Below are positions 42,538 to 56,138 of a stretch of DNA of 64,000 nt, in pieces; the stretch's first letter is position 1; each line of letters opens with the position of its first letter. The translations under genes were made by a program, and so were the position numbers. This stretch comes from Vulcanimicrobiota bacterium (GTDB taxonomy: Bacteria > Vulcanimicrobiota > Vulcanimicrobiia > Vulcanimicrobiales > Vulcanimicrobiaceae): assembly GCA_963795855.1 (NCBI GenBank), contig CAWCIZ010000001.1, positions 1-64,000 of the forward strand. Direction: 5' to 3'. The notes beneath the pieces were generated by a model. The model was not told the origin of the DNA, made no database searches, and was given only the letters and a program-made list of their open reading frames with translations.

Positions 42538-43300
42538 TCAGTCGCCGACGGGCAGCACGTAATTCGGCGGTGGAACGACCGGTTGTCCGACTTCGAGCGT
42601 GATGATTTGATGCGAGCGCAGCGGAATCTCGCGCAAATCGCCGTCGTACGGGCGCCCGTTGACGAACGCCGTGACGGTGCCGGCGAACGGCACCGACGCG
42701 ATCGCGGCTCAGTTGCTCGCCCCAGATGTCGAAAAACATTCCGAGCGTAAACGGGCCGCCTTGCGGAGCCGTCACGCTGCCCGACTCGACGTGAATGACG
42801 CCGCTCGGATCGTGGGTGTGAATCCAGTACAGGCATCCGCCCTGCGCGTTCGGGCTCATGCCGATGAACGCGGGAACTTGCACTTGCGTGCCGTGGTCGA
42901 AAATTGCAAGATGCGAGTGAATGTGCAGCACGACGCCTTCACTGGTTTGACAAGGAATGCCATCGACGTCTTGTCCGCGCCCGCCTTGCGCCGTATCTTC
43001 CGGGTTGCCGTGCGCCAGATCCGATTTGGGGAATCCGATAGCTTTGCCTACAGCTTGCAGATTCGCCAGTTGGACCGGCTTGCTCGTCGGCGACGGTCCG
43101 GGGCTCGGCGTGCTGACCGCAAACGCGAACGCATCGGCGCGCGCCTTATTTTGAACGTAGTTCGTGATGCCGAAGATGATAAACACCAAAACGACGACGG
43201 CCGCAAGGCCGATATAGATCGGCACCATCGGGTCGCGTTTGGGCGGCGGCGCGTTTCCTCCGCGAGTGCTTCTGCGTCGTTCTGCGCGCGAGTGACTCAT
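42538..43300 (-). CDS. membrane-anchored HxH/HTHD-motif protein (paralog 1; frameshift near 42690 falsely fuses it to the GNAT in the ORF track)
   Basis: HIHSHL...CLYWIHTHDPSGVIHVE...FTLGMFFDIWG. Confidence 0.75.
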
Positions 43301-43304
43301 CGAA

Positions 43305-44321
43305 TTACTGTACTCCTGCGGGCGTCTGCGCCGGATCGAGCCGGCGGCCGGGCACTAAGTAATTGCGGACGTAATCATGCACCGCGTCCGCGAGCGGCGT
43401 TATGGGCGCGTCGTAACCGGCCGCGCGCAGTCTGTTGATTGCCGCGCACGTGCAATACTGGTATTTGTCACGCAGGGTCTCGGGCATCTCCACGAACTCT
43501 ATGCGTTCGGGTACGTTCATCGCGCCGAAAATCGGGCGCACCAAGTCGAGCCAGGTGTGCGGCGCCCCGGAGCCGACGTTGAACAGCCCGTTCGCTTCGT
43601 GCTCCGCCAGATGCAGCGTCATCGCCGCTGCATCCTTGACGTAGATGAAGTCGCGCTGCTGCTCGCCGTCGCGGAATTCCGGGCGATAGCTCTTGAAGAG
43701 CCGAATGGAACCGGTCTCACGAATTTGATGGAACGCTTTGTCCACCAAACTGCGCATCTCGCCTTTGTGATGCTCGTTGGGTCCGAAGACGTTGAAGTAT
43801 TTCACGCCCGCCATGCGTGCCAGGAGTCCGTGATCGCGCGCGTACAGATCGAAGCGGTGCTTCGAATACGCGTACATGTTGAGCGGACGGAGGGCATCCA
43901 GATCTCCGTCGTCGCGCAAGTCTCGCTCGAGAGCACCGTAGGTCGCGGCCGACGAGGCATAAACGAAGCGCACGCCGCGATCGACGGCCCAATGGGCGAG
44001 ATGTTTGGTGTACTCGTAGTTGTTTCGCATCAAGTACGCCGCGTCCGTCTCGGTCGTCGAGGAACACGCGCCCATATGAAAGAGCGTAGTGACGTTCGCG
44101 AAAACGGCTCCGCGCTGCGCCAGGCGTTCTTCGAAGTCGCCGGCATCGATGTAATCGCGATACCGAAGGGGGACGAGATTCTTCCACTTTTCGGACGTGT
44201 CCAGACGATCGACGACGAGAATGTCGTCGATGCCGCGAAGGTTTAGCGCCCAAATCAGGGCGCTTCCAATCAGGCCGGCGCCGCCGGTAACGACGACGTG
44301 GCCGCGAGCAAGATCGTGCAT
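43305..44321 (-). CDS. hldD: ADP-L-glycero-D-manno-heptose 6-epimerase
   Basis: TGGAGLIGS, HMGACSSTTE, ASSAATYG, PLNMYAYSK, FNVFGPNEHHKG. Confidence 0.93.
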   Translation of the reverse strand: MHDLARGHVVVTGGAGLIGSALIWALNLRGIDDILVVDRLDTSEKWKNLVPLRYRDYIDAGDFEERLAQRGAVFANVTTLFHMGACSSTTETDAAYLMRNNYEYTKHLAHWAVDRGVRFVYASSAATYGALERDLRDDGDLDALRPLNMYAYSKHRFDLYARDHGLLARMAGVKYFNVFGPNEHHKGEMRSLVDKAFHQIRETGSIRLFKSYRPEFRDGEQQRDFIYVKDAAAMTLHLAEHEANGLFNVGSGAPHTWLDLVRPIFGAMNVPERIEFVEMPETLRDKYQYCTCAAINRLRAAGYDAPITPLADAVHDYVRNYLVPGRRLDPAQTPAGVQ

Positions 44322-44387
44322 GACCTAGTCGCCTACGTTGCGGGGCCCGCGGCGCGCGGTCCTGCCCCGCGGTGGGTAAAGGAAAAC

Positions 44388-46263
44388 ATGCGAGCGGCCG
44401 TTCTTGCATGCCTTTTGGCCGGCGCGACACCGTGCATGTGTCGAGCAGTACCCTCGCCGCAGCCGTCTGCTAACCCCGTGCAGATACATGCGGGCGGCGC
44501 CGTGACCGTTGTCGACCAGTCCGCGTCGGGCCCGGGGACGGTCGTGCCTTTCTTCAACGACTCGCCGGATAATCCGCAAACGCCATATGAGTTTTTTTCG
44601 CAAACGCCCGGCTTTACCGGCAGCGGCGCCCAAGCGCAATTCCACACAAACGTCGACTACACGCACAAGAAACTGCGGTTCGTGCTGAATGCGGGCGCGG
44701 AATCGTATGCGGGCAGCGGTCCAAACATCCTGTTCCTTGGCGAGCCGATACTTCCGACGGCGAACCCGTTCGTGACCTCGCGCACGCAATTCTTTCATTC
44801 ATACCTCGGGATCTTGGACGAGGTCGGCGCCAGTCGCGCATCACTGATAAATGGCTCCGTCGGAGCGTCCGACGGCTCGTGGAACGTGACCGGCGGCTGG
44901 TTTTTACCGTCGAAGACGCTGCCTTTCGTTTTTACGCCGCCGCCGCTTCCCGATTCGCCGCCGGCGATTGCGCCGCAGCTGCCGGAGAATCCGAACTCCG
45001 TAGTAGCTTCCCTGGAAAACTGGAATGAAAATTGGCCCGCTTTACCACTGCAGGGCGTCGACGTTTCCATGCAGCGCGCGGCGTACTCGGCCGGGTTTTT
45101 CGACGGCGCGCTTCCGAACGTCTACGTCGATCCGGTCTTCGGAAATTCGGCGCGCGCCGAGTCGCTTTTCTTCGGCGTCCACGGCGGTCACGGCCACGAA
45201 TACGCGGTACAGGCCGTGCGCCTCAATCAAAATGTCCGCGGCGGCGTGTTTCCCATTTCGGCCGGCGTGATGTGGGGAGGCAGTCTGGAAACGGGCGTCG
45301 GACCGGAAGGTCCTTTGCCGGAAAGCGATGTGTTTGGCCAGCGCAGCACGATCGTCGGCATCTCGGCAAATGTGCCGCTGTCGCCTCGAACGACGGCATT
45401 AGCCGAATTCGCGCGCTCGTGGTTTTCCGCGCAACATTTCAGTGCGCCCGGGAGATGCAACGCCGGGAGGCTACTACCATCTGCGTATCGTCCGCGCGTG
45501 GAGTGGGCATACGCTTGCGTTTGACGCGTATCGCATGGACCCGACGTATGCGCCGAACGTGCTGCCATACGGCAACGCGGTCGATGTATGGCCGGTTGCA
45601 TGGGCATGGCCGGCTACATGGTTGAAATCGAGCTATCAGATCGTTGAGAACGACCAAGTATCCGTGAATAGGCAAGGGCTTCGCTTGACGTACGATTCGG
45701 CGTCGGGGCGCCTGCGTTATCGTCTCGGCTACGCACAGTTCGCGCAAGTGACGCCCTATGATGCGGTCACTGCAAGGCAGCCCGGCTTCACCGATCCGTA
45801 CTTCACGTCCGAGGACACCGCGACGCTCAGTTACCGCGGCACGCAACACGAAGTCTTGGGGTCGTTGCAGTGGAACGGACCCTGGTTGCAAGCATCGCTG
45901 GACCTCGTCGATGATTTTCTACGCCGAGCCGCTCCGCAAACAAACCCCGAAGAAGGCGTGCACATGGATTATCCGCAAGCGCTGGTGACGCTTTCGCATG
46001 CCGGCAAGAATGCGGTGTACGCGGCGGGTGAAGGCCGTTTCGCTCTCAGCGGCTGTTACGCGCTTTGCGAAACCGCTGCGGTTCAACTAGAGCAACGCGT
46101 CTACTTTGCGGGCCTTACTTTCGCGGTGGCACCGCGCAGTTCGTGGCTGTTGGAATGGCGCAGATACGTCACGGACGGCGTGCCGTTCGTGGATTTTTCG
46201 TCGCCGCCGGCATATACCGGAACGAGGGTAATTTTGGAAGAGCGCTTCACGCTGTCGCCGTGA
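44388..46263 (+). CDS. putative outer-membrane beta-barrel protein (frameshift near 45445)
   Basis: Signal peptide, aromatic alternating strands, C-terminal ILEERFTL. Confidence 0.6.
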
Positions 46264-46282
46264 TGGCGTGAAGCGCTCTTCC
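46236..46282. repeat. 17-bp perfect inverted repeat between convergent genes
   Basis: GGAAGAGCGCTTCACGC...GCGTGAAGCGCTCTTCC. Confidence 0.85.
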
Positions 46283-46287
46283 GGCGT

Positions 46288-48638
46288 TTAGAACGGCGCG
46301 GTGAGCCGCAGAAGCACGTTTCGCCCCTGCGCGATCTGCGTCGTGTTGAAGCCGTTCGCGATCTTGATCACGTACTGGTGATTCAGCAGATTTTGGACGT
46401 CGAGGTTGAAGCCGATCGAATGATCGCTGCCGCGGCCCGCGTCCTTGCCGAAGCCGAGATCGAACGTCATGTGCGCCGGGAGACGGTCGACGCCCGCTTC
46501 AAAACTCACCGGATAGCCCGTGCCGTACTCGCTCTGCAGCGTCGCGTACCATGCGCGATTCTGCCCGAAGCGGTGCGTATACGCGCCGTTCGCCTCGTAC
46601 GTCTGGTCGTGATCCTCCGGCGCGAGATCCGCCGCGGTGAACGGCATTCCGCTGTTGACTCCGCAGTTGGGTATCGTCGTCGTGCCCGGCGGGCAGAAGA
46701 GGAACAGTCCGCCGGAGATGTCGCCGGCTTCGGAATGCGAGATGGTGCTCGATACGAACCACGAATCGCCGTTCGCGCGATTACCCTGCAGGCGAATGTC
46801 CAAGCCTTCATCGCGTCCGATTGCATTGTTGAAGACGGCGAACAGCGGCGTGTTGAGCAGCTGCGTCGTGTCCAAGATGTTCACGGCAGTACGCCGGAAA
46901 TAGTTGACGTAGCCGGTCACCCCCGGACGGAACGTGTGCGCCACGCCCATTTCGAAATACGAGTCGCGCTCGGGCTGCAAATCGTACGGAATGTTCGTGA
47001 GGTCGCAGCCGAGCGAAACGACGCACGCGCCGCGCACGTCTTCGAGTGCGGCGCCGCATACATTCGCCCGTAGTAGAAGTGCACGACGTTCTTGTCGTCC
47101 GGCGCGATGTTGACGCCGATTCTTGGGCTGATCTGCGATCCGCTGGTGAATCCGGTCGAGTGGTCGTAGCGCACGCCGTAGCTGACGCTGAGCGCGCGCG
47201 ATGGCGACCATTTGTCTTCCGCGTAGATACCGGTTTGCGTGCCCGGTTGCGCGACGGTCGTTTGCGACGTGGTGTACGCAAGCGGATTCGGCGAGCCGGG
47301 CGCCGCGATGAGGCTGCTCGCAGCGTAGTTCTCGCGGCTGAAGTCCACGCCTACTTTGACCGCGTGGTGCGCAGTCGCGCGGAAATCCGAGAGGCGCACG
47401 CCGGTATACGCCGCGCGCTGATCCTGGCTCAGGCCCGCTAAATACTGCGGATTCCCGTTGCCGTCCGGGACGTATGCTTGCACGTCGTTCTGCAAGTCGC
47501 CCTCGTACGCGACGCGCGTGTAGCGGACCCACGGAATGAACTGGAATATGCCGTTTCCGTCTTTGGAAACGTGCGTGAAGTTGAAGTTTGCGTACCGGTC
47601 GTACTCACGCTGCACGTCATCCGTGCCGGGCAGGCTGACCTGCGGATCGACCGGGTTATTCGGGTCCGTGTTTATCGGAATCTGAAACTGCGCCAATTGG
47701 TTCGAAAAATCGAACGCGAGCGAATTCTGCGTGCCGAACGAGGCGATGTAACGCAGAAACTGATCCGACTGCGACGAATTGTCGTGGATGGGCGCGTAGG
47801 TCGGCGTATCAAGACCGCGATTGGTCGTCTGCGCGTTGGCGTTGAAGAAAAGTTCCGAGCTCGGCGTGAGTTTGAGGGCTTCGTCGAAGCTCGTCATGCC
47901 TTGCCCGTAGTTTCCGCCGCCGATCGTGAACGCGCCTTGCTCCGGACGCTGCAGATCCGCCAGGCGATTCGTTTGAATGTTGACTACCGCGCCCATGCGG
48001 CTTCCGCCGTATTCCGCCGGGAACGCTCCGGTGAACACTTCGAGTGAATCGATGTTTTTCGGATCGATCATTTCGGCGAAATTCGACGTGGTCGCCTGCG
48101 GAATCGGCGCGCCGTCGATTTCGTACGTCAAGCCGTGGAAGCCGTTCGCGACCGGCTCGTTGTAGGAAAACTTGACGATGCCGGGCACCGTCTGTACGAG
48201 ATTGTTCAGACTGTTGTTCGTGGGAAGCGCCGCCAACTGCTGGCGTGTAAGGACGTTTTGCGAAATCGGCGTACCCGACGCGCCCGCGCGCGAGAGAACG
48301 TTGGCGCTCGCAATCGTCTTGAGTTCGCCGAGCGCGAAATTGATCGTGAGCACCTGATCCGAGGCAACCGTGATGTCCACTTTCTTTTCGGCGACGCCTG
48401 GATACGACGCGGAAAGCGTGTAGCTGCCGAATGGAACCTCCGAGAAAACGTAGGCGCCTGCGGAGTCCGTCTTCGATCGGAGCAGCGAGCCTTCACCGCT
48501 GAGCGACAAGGCGACGCCGGCTTCGGGTTTGTTATTGACGAGAATCGTACCGCGAACTAAGCCGGTCGTGGCCGCCACGGCCGGAAGCGCGGATAAACAG
48601 AGAAGAGCGGCAAACGCCGCCGCGATGATTCGGTACAT
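46288..48638 (-). CDS. TonB-dependent receptor with carboxypeptidase-regulatory-like N domain (frameshift near 47050)
   Basis: Signal peptide, YEIDGAPI, IDSLEVFTGAFPAEYG, GVRYD, SPRIG, VQNLLN, terminal F. Confidence 0.9.
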
Positions 48639-48642
48639 GGGA

Positions 48643-48686
48643 CCTTCCTAAAAGCGTGAAGTGGGAGATGTCGCGTTTAGGAAAGG
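48643..48686 (-). promoter_or_regulatory. hairpin pairing the upstream stop-codon region with the receptor Shine-Dalgarno
   Basis: Minus strand TTCCTAAA (contains the TAA) pairs with TTTAGGAA, which contains AGGAA of the AGGAAGG SD. Confidence 0.65.
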
Positions 48687-49183
48687 GCCGGCGGCGGCCG
48701 GGAAAACAGCGCGAAGCGCACGATCGTGCGCCGCACCGCGGGACGGCGTGAAATGAAATCCGCAAAAAACGCTGACGGCGAGCGTCTCACCGGCGACGAG
48801 AGCAGCGATGCGACGGTCGATACGGTCAGCGCAAATGCGCGCAGCACGACGGTAACGACGGAAGCCGCAACGGCGACGGTTACCAGGCAAAGCAGCAGCG
48901 GGATCGCATGCGGCGATTCGAGCGCTTCGAGCGCGGCCAACCAAGCGGCGGCGCTAAACGCAAGCGGCACGAAACGGGGCAAACAGTGCAGCCGGCGCAC
49001 CGCCCCGACCGCGGCCCATAGCGAGCCAGCGAAAGCAAAGCCGAAGGCCAACCCAAGCGAGGCCGAATGCAGCGAGCCGCCGACGGTGTGTTCCGCGCCG
49101 AAGACCAGCGTGTGCGCAAGCAGCGCTGCCGGCAGTCCCAGCAGCAGCGAAACGCCGGCATTTCGTGCGGCGCTCAGTCTCAC
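48677..49183 (-). CDS. His-containing membrane protein ending in a RAPP-like motif (FSRPPPALS)
   Basis: GTGA-coupled to the MCO stop; about 4 hydrophobic segments; LAH...EH...H...ESPH. Confidence 0.7.
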   Translation of the reverse strand: MRLSAARNAGVSLLLGLPAALLAHTLVFGAEHTVGGSLHSASLGLAFGFAFAGSLWAAVGAVRRLHCLPRFVPLAFSAAAWLAALEALESPHAIPLLLCLVTVAVAASVVTVVLRAFALTVSTVASLLSSPVRRSPSAFFADFISRRPAVRRTIVRFALFSRPPPALS

Positions 49184-50607
49184 GGCCGGTACACGACCTC
49201 CGTCATCATGCCGTCCATCATATGGATTTCGTTGTGGCAGTGCAACAGCCAACGTCCGGGCGGAGAATCCGCGCGGAATTGCCACGTGGCCGTACCCCCG
49301 TTCGCGCGTACGAGCGAGGTATCTTTGGGCAGGGGGCGGGCAAGCTGCGTGCCGTCGACCTCAGTAAGATGAAAGACGTGACCGTGCAAGTGCATGGGGT
49401 GATCCATGTCGGTCTTGTTGTGGAAGCGCACGGTTATGGTATCGTCGCGCTGCACGAAAATCTTTGCGGTATTCGGATAGGTTTTACCGTTAATCGTCCA
49501 CTTGTTGCCGGCGTATTCGCCGCCGCCGAGCGTGAAGGCGTAATGCTGCCGTCCCGCAATCGGAGCAACGGTACCGGTTCGAAGTCCGCCGGCTTTTTCG
49601 TACGTGAAATAATCGACGCCCTCGAGCGATTGACTCGCAGCCTGAGGCGATGCGTGCTCCATCCCTTCCGTATACATCACCGCAGCCTGCTGGTACGCGA
49701 GCGGATCGCTCGATACGCCCTGCAGCAAGAATGCGCCGGGCTTGCGAATATCGACGTACGCGTCGTAACGTTCGGCTACTCCGACGCGCAGTGCGTCGAC
49801 CTCCAACGGCTTCTCGAGGCGATTGCCGTCCGCATGCGTGACCGTGAGGCGATGACCGGCTAGGCGAACGTACCGGGTTTGCGTCGGATTTGCGTTGAGA
49901 ACGCGAAGACGAACGCGGTCGCCGGCCTTCACCGCGAGCTTGCGCGTGTTCGGATACGACGCACCGTTGATGCAGTGCGCGACGTAGGCAACTTCGTCGC
50001 CCATTTTGTCGTTCGGCTGCATCTGCGTCATTTCGGGCGACCCGATCGGGTCGACCATCGGCGCGTTGCTGGTGCCCATCATTGCCGCTTGTATCGTGTT
50101 CAACTTCGGAACGTCGTGAAAGACGAGCGCGAACTCCTTATCGGCGGGCTCGTCGTTCGGATCGTCGACGATAATCAAACCGAACAAACCGCGGGCGATG
50201 CCGTCGCTTACGTGATCGTGATACCAGCGCGTGCCGCTGGGACCCGGCGTGAACTCGTACAAAAACGATTCGCGGTCCGGCACGGCGGCTTGCGTCACGC
50301 CTTCGACGCCGTCCATCTTGTTCGGCAGAATCATGCCGTGCCAATGAATCGTGGCCGGTTCGCCGCTGTTGTTGACGAATTTTGCGCGCAGCCGCTGGCC
50401 GCACGCGATCCGCAGAACCGGACCGGGTATCGAGCCGTTGTACGCGAGGCCGGCAAAATCCACGCCCGGAACCGGCGAGAAACTGAGCGGCGCCGCCGTG
50501 AGCGCGTAATCAACGCTGTCGCTCGCGAGTGCGCGACGTGAAAGCGGCGGCAAAGCCGCCGCCAGCATCGCGCCGCCGCCCGCGAAGAGAAAGCCGGATC
50601 GGCGCAT
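49180..50607 (-). CDS. multicopper oxidase, Tat-type signal
   Basis: MRRSGFL; HWHG, WYHDH, HPMHLHGH, HCHNEIHM. Confidence 0.95.
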   Translation of the reverse strand: MRRSGFLFAGGGAMLAAALPPLSRRALASDSVDYALTAAPLSFSPVPGVDFAGLAYNGSIPGPVLRIACGQRLRAKFVNNSGEPATIHWHGMILPNKMDGVEGVTQAAVPDRESFLYEFTPGPSGTRWYHDHVSDGIARGLFGLIIVDDPNDEPADKEFALVFHDVPKLNTIQAAMMGTSNAPMVDPIGSPEMTQMQPNDKMGDEVAYVAHCINGASYPNTRKLAVKAGDRVRLRVLNANPTQTRYVRLAGHRLTVTHADGNRLEKPLEVDALRVGVAERYDAYVDIRKPGAFLLQGVSSDPLAYQQAAVMYTEGMEHASPQAASQSLEGVDYFTYEKAGGLRTGTVAPIAGRQHYAFTLGGGEYAGNKWTINGKTYPNTAKIFVQRDDTITVRFHNKTDMDHPMHLHGHVFHLTEVDGTQLARPLPKDTSLVRANGGTATWQFRADSPPGRWLLHCHNEIHMMDGMMTEVVYRP

Positions 50608-51277
50608 CAACTTCCGACCGTGAGCGGTACGTCCAGCGTCTTTCCGTCGTAGTTTACGCGCACGGTCCACGGACCACCCATCGAGAAGACGATCCGCCCG
50701 GTAAACACGTGCGGATCCGCCGCGCTGGGGCGAAGTTTCACCTCCCGCGTCTGCATGCTGCCGGTTCCCATGCGCATGATCGGAAGAACGCTTACGCTCT
50801 TGGGAGGAGTTCCGGGAAAGCGAATCGTGATTGCTGCGACGTCCGTCGGCGTCGCGGGATCGATGGAGACCACCGGCTGCGCGTTGTTCGCTCCGCCGTC
50901 TAGAGCGGACAGGTACGCCACGATGTCGCTGACTTGCGCGGGAGCGAATCCGAAGTTCGGCATCGGCGCGCGTGGATGCACGATGAAGTCTGCAATCCGA
51001 TCGGCAGTGAGGCGGTGCTCGATTCCGTAGAGTTTCGGTCCGACGGAGCCGCCCATCAAACGCACGCCATGACATCCCGCGCATCCGCTCGCCTGAACGA
51101 GCTTCGCGCCCGCGTTCGCATCACCGGCGTTCGAGTCGGCCGGCGTCGCATCCGCCGCAATGCTACGGTACGGCGTCATGCCGGGGAACGTGGCGTGACG
51201 CGTTTTCGCGGAGATCGCCAAAACCGCGACTGCGACGGCGCACGCTGCGCGCGCGCCCGTAAGAAGCCTTGCTTCAA
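50607..51277 (-). CDS. cytochrome c fused to a YtkA-like domain (5' frameshift)
   Basis: CAGCHG, MPNF; C-terminal PIMRMGTGSM...FSMGGPWTVRV; GGAGG RBS before the TTG at 51277. Confidence 0.8.
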
Positions 51278-51363
51278 AAAGGACCTCCGATTGGATTAAA
51301 CGCCGGCTGGCATGAGGCAGAAGCGGCTATCCAATCGGAAGACGCTCGCGACCTGCCGGCCCT

Positions 51364-52242
51364 TCACTGGCGCAGCGCGAAATACACACCGGGCAAATGC
51401 GCCGAATTCGGGTTGCCCGTACCGATCTCGATCCAAATCGCTTCATGGGAGTAGAGCGGCATGGTGTGCGGATCGGACGTCCACAGTTTGTACTGGCTGG
51501 CGCCGATCTCGCACGAGACGACGGTGGAGCACGGCACCGTGGCCGAGTTTCCGGACGTATACACCGTCACCGTTCCGTGGTACGGGCCGAATTGCGTCGA
51601 ATTCACCTTCACGCCCCAAATATCGAAAAGGTTTCCCAGCGTGAAAAGCGATTTCGTAATCGGCGCGTGCGTGGGATTCGGATCCTCCATGTGAACCAGA
51701 CCGCTGGCATCGTGCACGTGGACGTGGTAGAAGCATTCGCCGTAAATCTCTTCGTTCGACCAGCCGGAGTATTTGTCGTACTGATCGCCTGCCGCGCGGA
51801 CGATACCGACTGCGTCGGGGAGCGCGAGTTCCTTGCCGGTGGCATAAATGCCGACGAACGCGTGAATGTGATAGTTGTTCGACATCGTGGGATCGCACGA
51901 AATGTTGTCGACCTTATTTCCGGTCGGGCCTTGGCCGCCGCCGCCCGGTTTCGCTCCCGGATCGGCCGGCATCAAATCGCCGTCGTACTGTCCGGAAGCC
52001 GGCTTGTTATCGGCGTCGTTGTTGCTCGTTCGGAACGAGTTGTCCAGGCCGTTGATCTTGCCTTGACCCGCGGTTCGCCACGTGTACGCGAACGGTGTCG
52101 GTGCGGGCGAGGCGGCCGTCGACATCGCGTTGCGTGTTTGCGGGACGACCGATGGAACCGGTTGCGTCTGGCGCCCGGAACATGCCGCGAACACTCCGAG
52201 CGTCAGCGCGCCGAGCGGAATAAGAGCGGATTTGCGCAGCAT
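51364..52242 (-). CDS. lipoprotein with HxH/HxHD motifs (paralog 2)
   Basis: FAAC lipobox; NYHIHAFVG...CFYHVHVHDASGLVHME...FTLGNLFDIWG...LYSHE. Confidence 0.8.
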   Translation of the reverse strand: MLRKSALIPLGALTLGVFAACSGRQTQPVPSVVPQTRNAMSTAASPAPTPFAYTWRTAGQGKINGLDNSFRTSNNDADNKPASGQYDGDLMPADPGAKPGGGGQGPTGNKVDNISCDPTMSNNYHIHAFVGIYATGKELALPDAVGIVRAAGDQYDKYSGWSNEEIYGECFYHVHVHDASGLVHMEDPNPTHAPITKSLFTLGNLFDIWGVKVNSTQFGPYHGTVTVYTSGNSATVPCSTVVSCEIGASQYKLWTSDPHTMPLYSHEAIWIEIGTGNPNSAHLPGVYFALRQ

Positions 52243-52268
52243 AGCATCCTCCACGTGCGAAGCGATGC

Positions 52269-52281
52269 TCCATGGTAGCGG
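52269..52281 (-). promoter_or_regulatory. CCGCTACCATGGA motif (TACCAT -10-like), also upstream of paralog 3 at 53454-53466
   Basis: Identical 13-mer ending 27 nt before each paralog's ATG. Confidence 0.55.
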
Positions 52282-52407
52282 CTTTGGGATTATCCGGTAG
52301 AGGCCCAGGCAGGGACTGCGCGTAGGGCCAAACAGGCTTGCCTGCCTTCTGGTGCATGGAGAGGCGCAGTGCCAAGCAGCCCTGCGCCTCTTCCTATATG
52401 CTCGGCG

Positions 52408-53427
52408 TTACCACTGCTCGATAGAAGGCGACGTTCGGCAACGACGACCCGGTCGAGATTCCCGGCGCCCACGTCGACGAAAATCACCTCGTGCGAGTAC
52501 AGCGGTATCGCGTTGGGATCGCCGGTATACAGCGAGTAGTGGTTGGAGCCCACCTCCGAGTTACTGCCTGGACCGCCCCTCGCGACCGGTCCGGACGTGT
52601 ATATCTGCACGAGCCCCGTCATGATCGGCGCGCCGTTCGAATAAATGCCGGTCGGCATGATCTGCACGCCCCATTCGGTGAGAAAATCGCCGAGCGTGAA
52701 GATCGACATATTGCACGGCGTGGCGTTCTTTGTGAATCCGCCGCAGTCCGGACCCGTGGATTCGACGTGGATGACGCCGCTTGCATCGTGTGTGTGCATC
52801 TCGTAGAAGCACTGCGTTGCATAGTTGGTCCAATTGTGGATCGTGATGCCGTTGATCGGCAGGTCGCCGTCGCCCTCAGGCTCCGCCATGCCGATACCGT
52901 CCGAAAGCGCGACCGCGGAACCGTTGTTGTAAAAGCCGAGAAACGCGTGCACATGATAGTTATCTGGCATGCTCGCAAGACACGGTACCATGTCGCCCTG
53001 CGGTCCGGTCACTGAAGTATTTACGGGGCCGTGTCCGCCGCTGGGATAATTGCCGTCATTCTTATCTTGCGCCTTCGGGCTGCCGGCGAATACGGTGTCG
53101 TCGCCGTTGAATCTGTCCCGAGCCGACGCTGTACACCAGTTTCTGGTTCGCGGTAGGCGTCGCGTTCGGGGTCGGAGTCGTGACCGGCGTCGCCGTAGGC
53201 TTCGGCGTCTGCGTTTGCACCGGAGTCGGCGACATAGTCGGACTCAGAGTCGGCGCGGGCGTCGTGCTCGTTGTCGCTGTGGGTCCGGGCGAACCCGTGG
53301 GATGGCTGCTCGGCCCCGGATTCGTCGTCGGGACCGGTGGTGCGCTGCCGCCTCCGCCTCCGCAGGCGGCGAGAATGGTGAGTGCGGTAAAACAGGCAAA
53401 AGCCGTTAGAGTCCCAACGCGACGCAT
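52408..53427 (-). CDS. lipoprotein with P/T linker and HxH/HTHD motifs (paralog 3; frameshifted)
   Basis: LAAC lipobox; NYHVHAFLG...CFYEMHTHDASGVIHVE...FTLGDFLTEWG...LYSHE. Confidence 0.78.
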
Positions 53428-53688
53428 CTGTCTCTCCAGTTGGACGTGTTGCGTCCATGGTAGCGGGAGTCAGGCGCAGGCTGGAGGTCCACCGGGGGTC
53501 GCGGCACAGGGTCGAAGCGCGGCGGTCTAGGGACCTTCGGGCCGGAACCGCACCCCTGGAGACGGGGTTGTTAAGTCGTGAAAGCACAAGGGGTGGCCTT
53601 GAGGCGGCGTCTAATAGACGGGACCCCCCGCCCGTAAAACGGGGATATGCCTAGTGCCAAAGTTGGCCGGAAAGAGACGGTTAGCGTC

Positions 53689-54237
53689 ATGAGTGCCCGG
53701 TTGCCGGTAGAAAACAGCGATACCGTGAGTCTGGTTTGCGCATTGCTCGTGCGCTATCCGGAGATCGCGTCCATTCGCAGCATGCCCGGCGACGGCACCG
53801 TCCGCTTCAGTTACGCCGTCGCTTCGCGCATCGACCGCGCGACGCAGCGCGGCATCGGCGAGGAGATCGAAGCGCACGTCGACGGCTTCCTCTCGCTGGT
53901 CGGCGACCGCGGCGAGATCAAAGTCGAATGCGAGTCCGATCGCGCGCTCAGTTTCGTGCACGTCACGCGCGACTTGGAGACGTTCACCAAAGACGAACTC
54001 GCGATGCTTACCAGCTTCCTCGCCGACCGCTTCGGCAACGCGCTCGTGCGCAATCCCGTTCCCGACGAACAGGCCGACGAGGATCCCGCTTTTCAAGATG
54101 AATTGGCCGAGTCGGCGATTGAAGCGCTGCGCGATCCGGCTCAATCGAAGAGTTTGGTCGGATTCCGCGAGGAGAAGCGCGTTCTGGTATACTTTTTGAA
54201 ATCGCAGAAGAAAGCAAAGGCGTCGGCCCGCAGATAG
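53689..54237 (+). CDS. hypothetical protein
   Basis: VSLVCALLVRYPEI...LVGFREEKRVLVY; coupled to ymdB. Confidence 0.7.
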   Translation: MSARLPVENSDTVSLVCALLVRYPEIASIRSMPGDGTVRFSYAVASRIDRATQRGIGEEIEAHVDGFLSLVGDRGEIKVECESDRALSFVHVTRDLETFTKDELAMLTSFLADRFGNALVRNPVPDEQADEDPAFQDELAESAIEALRDPAQSKSLVGFREEKRVLVYFLKSQKKAKASARR

Positions 54238-55032
54238 TGCAGCACAGTCACCCTGCTCCTGATAGGAGACGTCGTCGGTTCGCCCGGCCGCGACACCCTC
54301 AAACGATGCGTTCCGCTCGCGCGCGATCAGTATAACGTCGACATCTGCATCGCGAACGGCGAAAACGCCGCCGGCGGCTTCGGTTTGACCGCTCAGACCG
54401 CGGACGAGATGTTTGCGACGGGCGTCGACTTCATCACCAGCGGCAATCACATTTTCGACAAGCGCGACTTCAAGCCGTATCTGGACTCGAGCGATCGCGT
54501 GATCCGCCCGGCGAACTATCCGCCGGGGGTTCCGGGCCGCGGCGTCGGCTATATCTCCGCCAACGGCTACACCGTCGGGGTGCTCAACGTGATGGGGCGA
54601 ACGTTCATGCCGCCCGTCGACGACCCGTTCCGGACGGCCGAAGTAGCCCTGGACGAGCTCGCGGACCGCACGAAGATCATCGTGGTCGACGTCCACGCCG
54701 AGGCAACCAGCGAAAAAATTGCCCTGGGCCGGTATCTTGACGGACGCGTCTCGGCAATCTACGGTACTCACACGCACGTTCAAACGGCGGACGAGCAGAT
54801 TTTGCCGGGGGGAACGGCTTACCTCACGGACGTTGGGATGACGGGCCCGACGGACGGCGTCATCGGCATGGAGACCGGACCCGTCCTGGATAGATTCACA
54901 ACCGGCTTCTCGGAACGTTTCTCGGTGCAGAAGTCGGGAACCAAACAGTTCTGTGCCGTCGTCGTAGCAATCGATGTGGAGACCGGACGCGCGACGCAAA
55001 TCAAGCGCATCTTCCAGCGAGGCATAGCATGA
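54237..55032 (+). CDS. ymdB: YmdB/TIGR00282 metallophosphoesterase (start uncertain)
   Basis: IGDVVGSPGR, ANGENAAGG, TSGNH, DVHAEATSEK, GTHTHVQTAD, TDVGMTG. Confidence 0.93.
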
Positions 55033-55325
55033 TAGACGATCCGGCAAAACACATCGGTACGAGCGTTCTCAAAGTCTCCGCGAAGAGCAATCCGAATTCC
55101 GTTGCGGGCGCCCTGGCCGCGGTATTGCGCGAGCGCGAAACGGCGGAACTGCAGGCAGTCGGAGCGGGCGCGATCAATCAGGCGGTGAAGGCCATCGCCA
55201 TCGCGCGCAGCTACTTGAAGACGAGCCAAATCGATCTCGCGTGCGCGCCTTCCTTTATAGATGTGGAAATCAACGGGAACGAACGCACGGGGATATCGCT
55301 CGCCGTCGAACGGCGCACCCTCTAG
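55029..55325 (+). CDS. spoVS: stage V sporulation protein S family
   Basis: VLKVSAKSNPNSVAGALA...QAVGAGAINQAVKAIAIAR. Confidence 0.95.
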   Translation: MIDDPAKHIGTSVLKVSAKSNPNSVAGALAAVLRERETAELQAVGAGAINQAVKAIAIARSYLKTSQIDLACAPSFIDVEINGNERTGISLAVERRTL

Positions 55326-55331
55326 CCGCAG

Positions 55332-56138
55332 TTGCTCGTAGACTTCCACTCGCACACCTTCGAGAGCGACGGCACCCTCGCGCCTTCGGCGCTCTGCGAA
55401 CTGATGCAGAAGCGCGGCGTGCGCATTTTTTCCATTACGGATCACGACACGATCGAGGCGTATGGACGGTTTGACGTGCCCAAGCATATGCGTGCGGTCG
55501 TCGGCATCGAGATCAACACGACGTATCGAGACGGCGAGGTTCACATCCTCGGCTATCGACTGCCGACCGGCGAATCGCCGCTCACCAACGTGCTCGAACA
55601 AAACCGTGCCGCCCGGCGTGTGCGCGTGGGGCGAATCGTCGACCAATTGCGCGCGGCCGGTCACGAGATAACGATGGACGACATCCGTGCAGAGGCTCGA
55701 GAAGGTGCCTCGCTCGGTCGTCCGCACGTGGGCAAAGCGCTGATTCGCCTCGGTATTGCGCCCGACATCGAAACGGCGTTCCGCTCCTTTCTGCGGCGTG
55801 GTACGCCTGGGTACGTTCCGTCGACGCACATCACGCCGCACGAGGCGATCGACGTGATTCTCGCGTCCGGCGGCGTGCCGGTGCTCGCGCACCCCGGGCG
55901 CTTAAAAGACTATTCGATGATCGACGAACTTGCCGAACGCGGGCTGCAGGGGCTGGAAGTTTTCTATCCCACGCACGAATCGGCGCAGATTCAGCATTTC
56001 CGCGATCGCGCGCGCCGGTTGAATCTCGTTATGACCGCCGGCTCGGACTTTCACGATATCCGCTACCACAAACGCGGCGTTGGGGTCGAGGTAGACCAGG
56101 CGGACATCACGCCGTTCTTGAACCTGATTCTAAACTGA
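55332..56138 (+). CDS. PHP domain protein
   Basis: DFHSHT..SDG, ITDHDT, GRPH, LAHP, GSDFH. Confidence 0.93.
   Translation: MLVDFHSHTFESDGTLAPSALCELMQKRGVRIFSITDHDTIEAYGRFDVPKHMRAVVGIEINTTYRDGEVHILGYRLPTGESPLTNVLEQNRAARRVRVGRIVDQLRAAGHEITMDDIRAEAREGASLGRPHVGKALIRLGIAPDIETAFRSFLRRGTPGYVPSTHITPHEAIDVILASGGVPVLAHPGRLKDYSMIDELAERGLQGLEVFYPTHESAQIQHFRDRARRLNLVMTAGSDFHDIRYHKRGVGVEVDQADITPFLNLILN

Follow-up and report, generated by a model that had tools for sequence, protein, structure and literature searches.

The envelope-sensing arrest leaders that have been worked out come from a few cultured bacteria, and are mostly short signal-peptide proteins with RAPP or RGPP, both of which are proven arrest motifs (PMC10951233; PMC12992588). 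Here we describe a putative leader in a stretch of 64,000 nucleotides (nt) from Vulcanimicrobiota bacterium (assembly GCA_963795855.1, contig CAWCIZ010000001.1, positions 1 to 64,000), which as a whole is called the window below. The element in question is an open reading frame (ORF) of 168 amino acids (aa), P0001, located on the minus strand between a multicopper oxidase gene and the gene of a TonB-dependent receptor. Judging from this ORF and its relatives, we consider it rather probable that it encodes a four-helix inner-membrane protein and serves at the same time as a cis-acting translational leader of the next gene, here the receptor.

In cutFOG of Rhodobacter capsulatus, the exported leader CutF has a C-terminal proline-rich, stalling-like motif, a stem-loop shields the Shine-Dalgarno (SD) sequence of the next gene, cutO, until it is opened by a delayed ribosome, and a metal-binding motif faces the periplasm in a copper-oxidase context (PMC9973294). 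The locus in the window has a motif of the same sort, we propose for it the same arrangement of stem-loop and delayed ribosome, and a cluster of His and Glu residues would be the counterpart of the metal-binding motif. However, CutF is reported to be DUF2946-like, with one cleavable Sec signal and CxxxC (PMC9973294), while the present leader has four helices and the His/Glu residues, no CxxC and no Pfam match; furthermore, in most loci it would gate a TonB receptor gene, and in the window it follows the oxidase gene instead of preceding it. As here, a TonB-dependent transporter gene comes right after CruR of Bordetella pertussis (bp2923-bfrG/crtA), a leader ORF whose C-terminal R-x-P-P is required for regulation and whose nascent chain senses metal; it differs in having DUF2946, CXXC and RAPP, and in acting through Rho-dependent termination (PMC9426467). 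The CruR spacer is 162 nt as quoted in PMC9973294, while here it is 38 nt, with RPPP and a conserved pairing of the SD sequence. In Planctomycetota, the uA_LPPP leaders have an X-P-P-P motif in their last 15 residues, likewise found here, and a toeprint places the P site of the arrested ribosome on the third codon of the motif; they differ in lying upstream of secA, in carrying an N-terminal signal sequence, in monitoring secretion and in a species-dependent arrest (PMC10987492). The CadC-type polyproline pauses, which depend on elongation factor P (EF-P), tune the amount of their own protein (PMC4176338), while the presumed pause motif of the present leader is located at the very end of the ORF and is tied to the SD sequence of the next gene. 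As for RPPP itself, it gives the strongest XPPP stall in E. coli (PMC4176338), is under-represented in that organism and relieved by EF-P (PMC4176338; 10.1101/2024.08.03.606492), and is counted among the RAPP-like sequences (PMC10987492).

The concept is thus already known. Fujiwara et al. 2025 (PMC12992588) describe RAPP/RGPP arrest peptides encoded by upstream ORFs (uORFs) before TonB receptors and copper genes, including SLIV_18480 of Streptomyces lividans, a four-transmembrane (TM) arrest peptide with a predicted His-based metal site, to which the present leader is likened by description only. This weakens a claim made in an earlier reading of the window (hereafter the original prediction), namely that the protein may be a new class for being polytopic and His-based. 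The survey in that paper searched for RAPP and RGPP, RPPP occurs 0 times in its main text, and its TonB-linked uORFs are almost all signal-peptide proteins, unlike the four-helix leader here; its supplements may list some of the seven RAPP members of the family described below (PMC12992588). What is new here is a family without a model, the use of RPPP, a tail conserved in length, the re-use before different genes, and the phylum. In the literature, a search that combined Eremiobacter* with TonB or multicopper oxidase yielded no paper containing the Eremiobacter term, and one that combined translation arrest with histidine, upstream ORF and TonB-dependent yielded no relevant papers beyond the ones cited.

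The putative leader protein and its C-terminal motif

The leader ORF is located at 48677..49183 on the minus strand, as are all genes of the window given below. It begins with a GTG at 49183-49181, which overlaps the TGA of the oxidase at 49182-49180 (GTGA), and ends with RFALFSRPPPALS, the stop codon being the TAA at 48679-48677; the C-terminal end of the protein is FALFSRPPPALS (FSRPPPALS). The RPPP codons at 48700-48689 belong to a motif conserved in the family consensus, here ALFSRPPP (48689..48712), which we presume to be a site of ribosome pause or arrest, and the ATG of the receptor at 48638 is 38 nt past the leader stop. The original prediction had described a 168-aa membrane ORF coupled to the oxidase, the RPPP codons, a hairpin holding the stop codon and the SD sequence AGGAAGG, and a receptor 38 nt downstream, and all of these are present in the sequence.

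Loss of RPPP and of the hairpin among homologs had been named beforehand as a ground for refuting the prediction. As for the motif, the end is kept as R[PA]PP in 185 of 188 family proteins, with RPPP in 178 and RAPP in seven, and the three proteins without the motif are partial matches, including one fragment of 87 aa. The motif is found 0-17 residues before the C-terminus, most often three (188 proteins). The consensus drawn from 180 distinct full-length sequences reads R-[LR]-F-[SA]-R-[PA]-P-P, where R, P and P are invariant and the second position is P or A, with low entropy at positions -4 to -1 before the motif and high entropy past the last Pro. Likewise, R162, P164 and P165 are invariant in 134 diverse alignment rows with a mean column identity of 30%. 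RPPP therefore alternates with RAPP alone within one family, one of the loci (L008) being a RAPP variant. A census of R[APG]PP close to the ends of reading frames, taken over all six frames of the whole genome, gave 71 matches, mostly in non-coding frames, and is uninformative at a GC content of 62%; a hydrophobic candidate from this census turned out to be an antisense frame.

The spacing of the motif is also conserved. All 134 rows have 75-82 residues between E86 and the Arg of the motif, while between H32 and E86 the number ranges over 47 to 72. The tail that joins helix 4 to the motif is poorly conserved in sequence and fixed in length at ~33 residues, about one length of the ribosome exit tunnel.

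The AlphaFold2 model of P0001, based on the 134-row alignment, predicts helices at residues 2-31, 36-62, 71-87 and 96-129, followed by a disordered Arg-rich tail at 130-168. Its predicted local distance difference test (pLDDT) score is 88.3 overall, above 90 for the four hydrophobic helices and about 95 for the bundle, and the hydropathy and the positive-inside charge pattern agree with the four-helix prediction. The N-terminus, the 63-71 loop and the tail are rich in Arg. The face opposite these Arg-rich parts carries the conserved residues H24, H32, H39, E86, E89 and H92, which include an ExxE (48908..49114, assigned from the 134-row conservation, helix boundaries and charge) and are located where helices 1, 2 and 3 end or in the loop of residues 88-95. 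H32 and E86 are found in 134 of the 134 rows, E89 in 133, H24 in 132, H92 in 119 and H39 in 112. The topology would be N-in/C-in with the His/Glu face in the periplasm, and the cluster is a candidate metal site. The invariant ExxE with histidines presumably resembles iron-binding motifs, and would suit iron or other divalent metals. The Cys residues are C66 and C98 only, a pair that is not conserved, and the absence of CxxC had been noted correctly.

Searches of P0001 found no Pfam family at E up to 0.01 and no NCBIfam match. When 134 members are compared with Pfam at E up to 1, there is no recurrent match: 63 families are matched, the commonest in 5 members, and DUF2946 is absent from the 25 commonest. 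A search of 5.8 billion proteins gave 46 relatives, and an exhaustive profile search gave 182 cluster representatives at E up to 0.001; record titles assign the carriers to Eremiobacteraeota/Vulcanimicrobiota, Baltobacteraceae. In a sample of 400 genomes of the phylum, the leader family is matched in 184 of the 296 genomes of the window's own family, Baltobacteraceae, and in 0 of 104 from 20 other families (five sampled genomes, G034, G209, G237, G266 and G290, are flagged unpublished); the named genome records met for this phylum are all metagenome-assembled genomes. At the level of structure, Foldseek with the leader model found nothing in PDB at E up to 0.001, and VIA-align gave YbbP, FtsX, BceB, MacB and HrtB with Z from 8.5 to 6.4 and a root mean square deviation of 3.6-5.9 over 122-132 residues, where a Z up to 8.5 is below the meaningful level for helical bundles. 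A search of the ESM Atlas gave unnamed clusters only, with DUF6412 at 0.82 below the threshold.

Genes linked to the putative leader

The locus set includes 42 distinct homolog ORFs with DNA, most of them from the genome search, and a related-locus search gave 9 loci from genomes and 6 from metagenomes; L008 is omitted from the set, its profile match having ended short of the C-terminus. In 37 of the 42 loci the same type of receptor (signal peptide, CarboxypepD_reg, Plug and barrel) is located downstream, in agreement with the predicted linkage to TonB receptors. The other five have a cytochrome c-domain protein (L006 and L053), a secreted protein of no assigned family (L010 and L050) or a redoxin (L013). 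This linkage indicates that the invariant unit is the leader together with the next gene. The oxidase is upstream of the leader in only 17 of the 42 loci, its stop overlapping the leader start by 4 nt in the window and in L022, L024, L026 and L029, and in at least 13 of the non-oxidase loci a divergently oriented YmdB-like gene is located upstream, which makes the leader the first gene of its unit, as for a classical leader. Consequently, the mid-operon placement stressed in the original prediction is a subclade state and no family trait. A Sec/YidC monitoring substrate, of the kind known as SecM, MifM and VemP, was considered and rejected in view of the downstream genes, which are receptors in 37 loci and cytochrome c, redoxin or secreted protein genes in the rest.

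Some of the loci deserve mention. The G258 genome has three leader-receptor pairs. In L066 (G338 contig C66, 1-6808), the gene order is an unknown gene, a leader, a cytochrome c protein, a multicopper oxidase, a second leader and a TonB receptor, so that there would be one gate for the cytochrome c-oxidase pair and another for the receptor. The secreted protein following the leader at L010:529-1440:- and L050:593-1453:- has ~290-300 aa and a mature start of HVVCGDRVFPTTLTMDDPG, with no Pfam match. Conserved neighbours in the longer loci are SCO1/SenC, MauE/DoxX and redoxin genes.

Pairing between the leader end and the downstream SD sequence

In the window, RNAfold predicts a stem between CUUUCCUAAA.GCG (48685-48676 and 48674-48672) and CGC.UUUAGGAAGG (48656-48654 and 48652-48643). 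The resulting stop-spanning hairpin (48643..48685, minus strand, assigned by RNAfold, duplex tests and co-variation) has a 5' arm at 48685-48672, which holds the TAA, and a 3' arm at 48656-48643, which includes the receptor SD sequence AGGAAGG at 48649-48643. The duplex of the motif-to-stop segment with this SD sequence has an energy of -17.7 kcal/mol and beats 63 of 63 control segments of the same length (mean -9.2, best -14.6). The spacer of 38 nt has no inner hairpin and no terminator-like site between the stop codon and the ATG.

Across the loci, we took the segment that begins at the Arg codon and ends 12 nt past the stop and computed its duplex with the 18 nt preceding the start codon, using ~65 equal segments tiled over each ORF as controls. 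Among 36 loci, which are related so that the counts overstate their independence, this segment gives the best SD duplex in 20 and is within the top 10% in 26, with a mean energy of -14.7 kcal/mol against -9.0 for the controls. When the arms are swapped among loci, cognate arms average -15.6 and non-cognate ones -11.2, and none of 10,000 permutations is as low; the result also holds for 25 representatives whose 3' arms differ at >5 of 22 positions. The RAPP variant L008 has a duplex of -14.4, the best of 56 controls. The anti-SD segment itself varies by clade: it spans the stop codon in most loci, consists of the CCU/CCC proline codons themselves in L012, L060, L061 and L064, and of the codons right past the motif in L059 and L008. 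Counted from the first base of the Arg codon, 21 nt take in half or more of the 5' arm in 29 of 35 loci; a ribosome holding the third motif codon in its P site would cover approximately this much.

Of 50 loci searched with a covariance model that was built on ten loci with short spacers, 19 have a match to the hairpin. In the alignment fitted to this model (A5), which is biased towards pairing because it is fitted to the structure, 87.7% of the cells are paired, against 61-64% in slid registers. Both partners have changed in 6 of the 11 hairpin pairs, and the covariation score of 0.326 is reached by 0 of 500 shuffled alignments, for which the value is 0.238. The conservation and covariation anticipated for the stop-to-SD hairpin are therefore found, the pairing being both kept and co-varying across loci.

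Several further features are seen in the RNA of the related loci. L058, L062 and L065, where RPPP is followed by 7 residues, have another local hairpin, which encloses the stop codon and shows a compensatory pair (GTGATGC/GCATCAC to GTGAAGC/GCTTCAC), and its CUUCUC loop could pair with the GAGGAG SD sequence; this may be an alternative-structure form of the switch. Nearly all spacers of more than about 50 nt contain an inner GC-rich hairpin nested in the SD-sequestering helix (L003, L009, L011, L012, L014, L021, L024-L026, L033-L035, L039, L045, L059, L060 and L064), and of the 24 inner hairpins that were scored, 5 have a U-rich tail behind them and resemble intrinsic terminators; the nested hairpin may be a loop clamp or an attenuator. 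In addition, a pyrimidine-rich word, (T)TTCAC or TCTCAC, is located 8-15 nt upstream of the receptor SD sequence in many loci, in the window at 48657-48661, and is kept across subclades whose hairpin arms differ.

Proposed mechanism and competing explanations

The motif, its spacing, the gene linkage and the RNA pairing are each conserved, and on this comparative evidence a switch of the CutF type, in which a stalled ribosome opens the hairpin, appears to be the best-supported reading. In the free mRNA, the receptor SD sequence would be paired with the last codons and the stop codon of the leader. A ribosome decoding the R-[LR]-F-[SA]-R-P-P-P end would pause or arrest on the prolines, and with its P site on the motif, the mRNA channel would cover most of the 5' arm, so that the hairpin could not form and the SD sequence would be free. 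The length of the pause may be set from outside the ribosome, and the fixed length of the tail, the complete bundle and the outward His/Glu residues together suggest how the hold time is set. As the motif is ~33 residues past helix 4, the insertion of this helix, or its packing on helices 1-3, would pull the chain and release the pause, and the His/Glu cluster on the outer face could make the packing metal-dependent. The likeliest logic would be a fast release with the receptor off when the metal is present, and a long pause with the receptor on when it is scarce. In this scheme we infer the pausing, the release by force, the metal binding and the sign of regulation. Copper is suggested by the neighbouring genes only, namely the oxidase and SCO1.

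More tentatively, and with rather more doubt than belief, we also consider that the leader may be a polytopic co-translational folding sensor, in which the packing of helix 4 on a periplasm-facing His/Glu (ExxE) metal site of helices 1-3 would be read out, at a distance of one tunnel length, by an RPPP arrest tuned to withstand EF-P. The sensor, the ruler tail, the arrest motif and the anti-SD codons would then form a portable cassette, which Baltobacteraceae would have put ahead of receptors, of cytochrome c-oxidase pairs and of redoxins, in some cases with two copies in the same operon, and the metal sensed could be iron rather than copper.

A number of results weigh against the switch, in addition to the bias of the fitted alignment and the relatedness of the loci given above. 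In the window, the entire fold of 101 nt has a z score of -1.67, and 14 of 200 shuffles fold equally well. The probability that the SD sequence is unpaired is 0.13 in the free RNA, 0.27 under the constraint of a stalled ribosome and 0.18 in shuffles, 7 of 30 of which are as low, so this partition-function test of SD accessibility in the window is not significant. Whether the hairpin stands above chance thus depends on the test used. Across loci, the corresponding medians are 0.135, 0.305 and 0.285, a modest and noisy difference, and the pairing is weak or otherwise built in 10 of the 36 loci (L017, L027-29, L058, L062, L065 and others). RNAalifold found no consensus pairs on the MAFFT alignment A3, because the subgroups differ in register, and pairing in a fixed register on A3 is 67.3% against 60.9% when slid by -1; the MAFFT-based tests were replaced by the covariance-model alignment and the alignment-free duplex tests. 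The proline motif of CutF gave no stall in the E. coli test reported in PMC9973294. The presence of EF-P, which relieves RPPP stalls, implies that a long arrest would need contacts in the exit tunnel. Moreover, the confidently modelled helical bundle could have a separate job of its own, and the broken receptor frame in the window (see below) may mean either that the switch is out of use in this genome or that the assembly is in error.

The EF-P encoded in the genome of the window (259.9 bits) favours the view that the leader and the receptor are joined by plain translational coupling without sensing, where the hairpin would make translation of the receptor dependent on any ribosome that reads through to the end of the leader ORF, and RPPP would be a short EF-P-relieved pause that adds a fixed open time. 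The relief of RPPP stalls by EF-P in E. coli (PMC4176338) and the lack of a stalled product from the CutF proline motif in that host (PMC9973294) point the same way; a terminating ribosome would melt the stem too, the stop codon being within the 5' arm, and the oxidase and the leader are themselves coupled by the 4-nt overlap in the window and the four loci named. Coupling of this sort leaves unexplained, however, why a four-helix bundle of 130 residues with invariant His/Glu stands ahead of the motif, why the spacing from helix to motif is fixed, why the four residues before RPPP are conserved, and why RPPP is swapped with RAPP alone, and we regard it as unlikely. Control at the level of transcription, where a paused ribosome would keep Rho, or a terminator in the spacer, from acting on the nascent transcript, release of the pause would stop transcription ahead of the receptor, and the masking of the SD sequence would be secondary, is less likely still, and quite improbable in our estimate. 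CruR acts so before a TonB transporter (PMC9426467), the spacers appear by eye to be C-rich and G-poor, and the inner GC-rich hairpins of the longer spacers, with the U-rich tails of five, would suit it. The spacer in the window, however, is only 38 nt and has neither an inner hairpin nor a terminator-like site, 19 of the 24 inner hairpins have no U-tail and are nested in the outer SD helix as a loop clamp would be, and the feature that co-varies is the SD pairing.

A confident and conserved bundle is also what is expected of an ordinary inner-membrane partner of the receptor, such as a metal-handling or transport subunit, for which RPPP would be a docking motif and the RNA pairing incidental. 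The co-duplication of the leader with receptor paralogs, as in the three pairs of G258, agrees with such a partner. The best structural look-alikes are four-TM domains of transporters of the FtsX/MacB type, at a Z of 8.5 at most, which is too low to be meaningful for helical bundles. Yet homologs are located upstream of non-receptor genes as well, the residues after the motif vary in sequence and in number (0 to 17), and a docking motif predicts neither an anti-SD segment within the footprint of a paused ribosome, as observed in 29 of 35 loci, nor the co-variation of cognate arms. We therefore find this explanation very improbable.

With regard to classification, the leader fits the RAPP-like C-terminal arrest peptides (Sakiyama 2021; Fujiwara 2024, 2025) on every in silico feature: the motif is near the C-terminus, four predicted helices serve as the N-terminal localisation signal, and the gene directly downstream has a masked SD sequence, with weak pairing in about 10 of 36 loci. 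DUF2946 is not matched, CxxC or CxxxC is not found, and there are four helices in place of a single Sec signal. The leader would thus act like CutF and CruR, and is not a member of their family.

Within the family, RPPP, classically a substrate of EF-P, and RAPP replace each other. Should the pause prove real, the family would offer a test of how EF-P-sensitive and EF-P-refractory stalls are related, and of whether the folding force of a membrane protein reports metal binding. It would also show how metal uptake can be regulated in Eremiobacterota at a locus that has no recognisable transcription factor. For annotation, the analysis would give a name and a role to a 'hypothetical protein' in the 184 sampled Baltobacteraceae genomes.

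Other features of the locus

Read on the minus strand, the gene row of the window consists of four genes, a cytochrome c-domain protein, the oxidase, the leader and the receptor. The cytochrome c-domain protein (50607..51221, 204 aa) is directly upstream of the oxidase. The multicopper oxidase (49180..50607) has 475 aa counted from MRRSGFLF and an N-terminus like that of twin-arginine translocation substrates, and a domain search finds three Cu-oxidase domains in it; the TonB-dependent receptor gene (46288..48638) is matched by CarboxypepD_reg, Plug and the barrel, so that both identities given in the original prediction hold. A search of 46000-54000 for sigma-70-like promoters found none, and an Rfam scan of 44000-56000 at E up to 1 gave no match. 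The substrate of the receptor cannot be inferred from sequences of solved structures, where a search with the intact receptor found distant TonB receptors only (best E 2.1e-7).

The frame of the receptor is broken near 47046. The barrel profile is just half matched in the window, and in a tblastn comparison with an intact relative of 808 aa, residues 1-557 and 558-808 are in two different frames, while related receptors have 770-810 aa and are uninterrupted. The break, at 47040-47055, is one frameshift, with no homopolymer in the local sequence, and is either true gene decay or an assembly indel. A second frame switch is found near 42690, in a gene of ~259 aa at 42541-43291 within 5 kb of the receptor break. 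The genome of the window has a completeness of 86% in 6 contigs, and together with the second frameshift this gives a hint of assembly indel errors.

The ~259-aa gene is conserved, of no assigned function, and follows an epimerase in related loci. Upstream of the cytochrome c-domain protein, two tandem paralogous stretches at 52458-53114 and 51379-52158 match a ~400-aa unknown protein that heads the conserved cluster of the relatives. The stretches within 51379-53114 also match the ~259-aa downstream gene, more weakly, showing that these unknowns have a domain in common.

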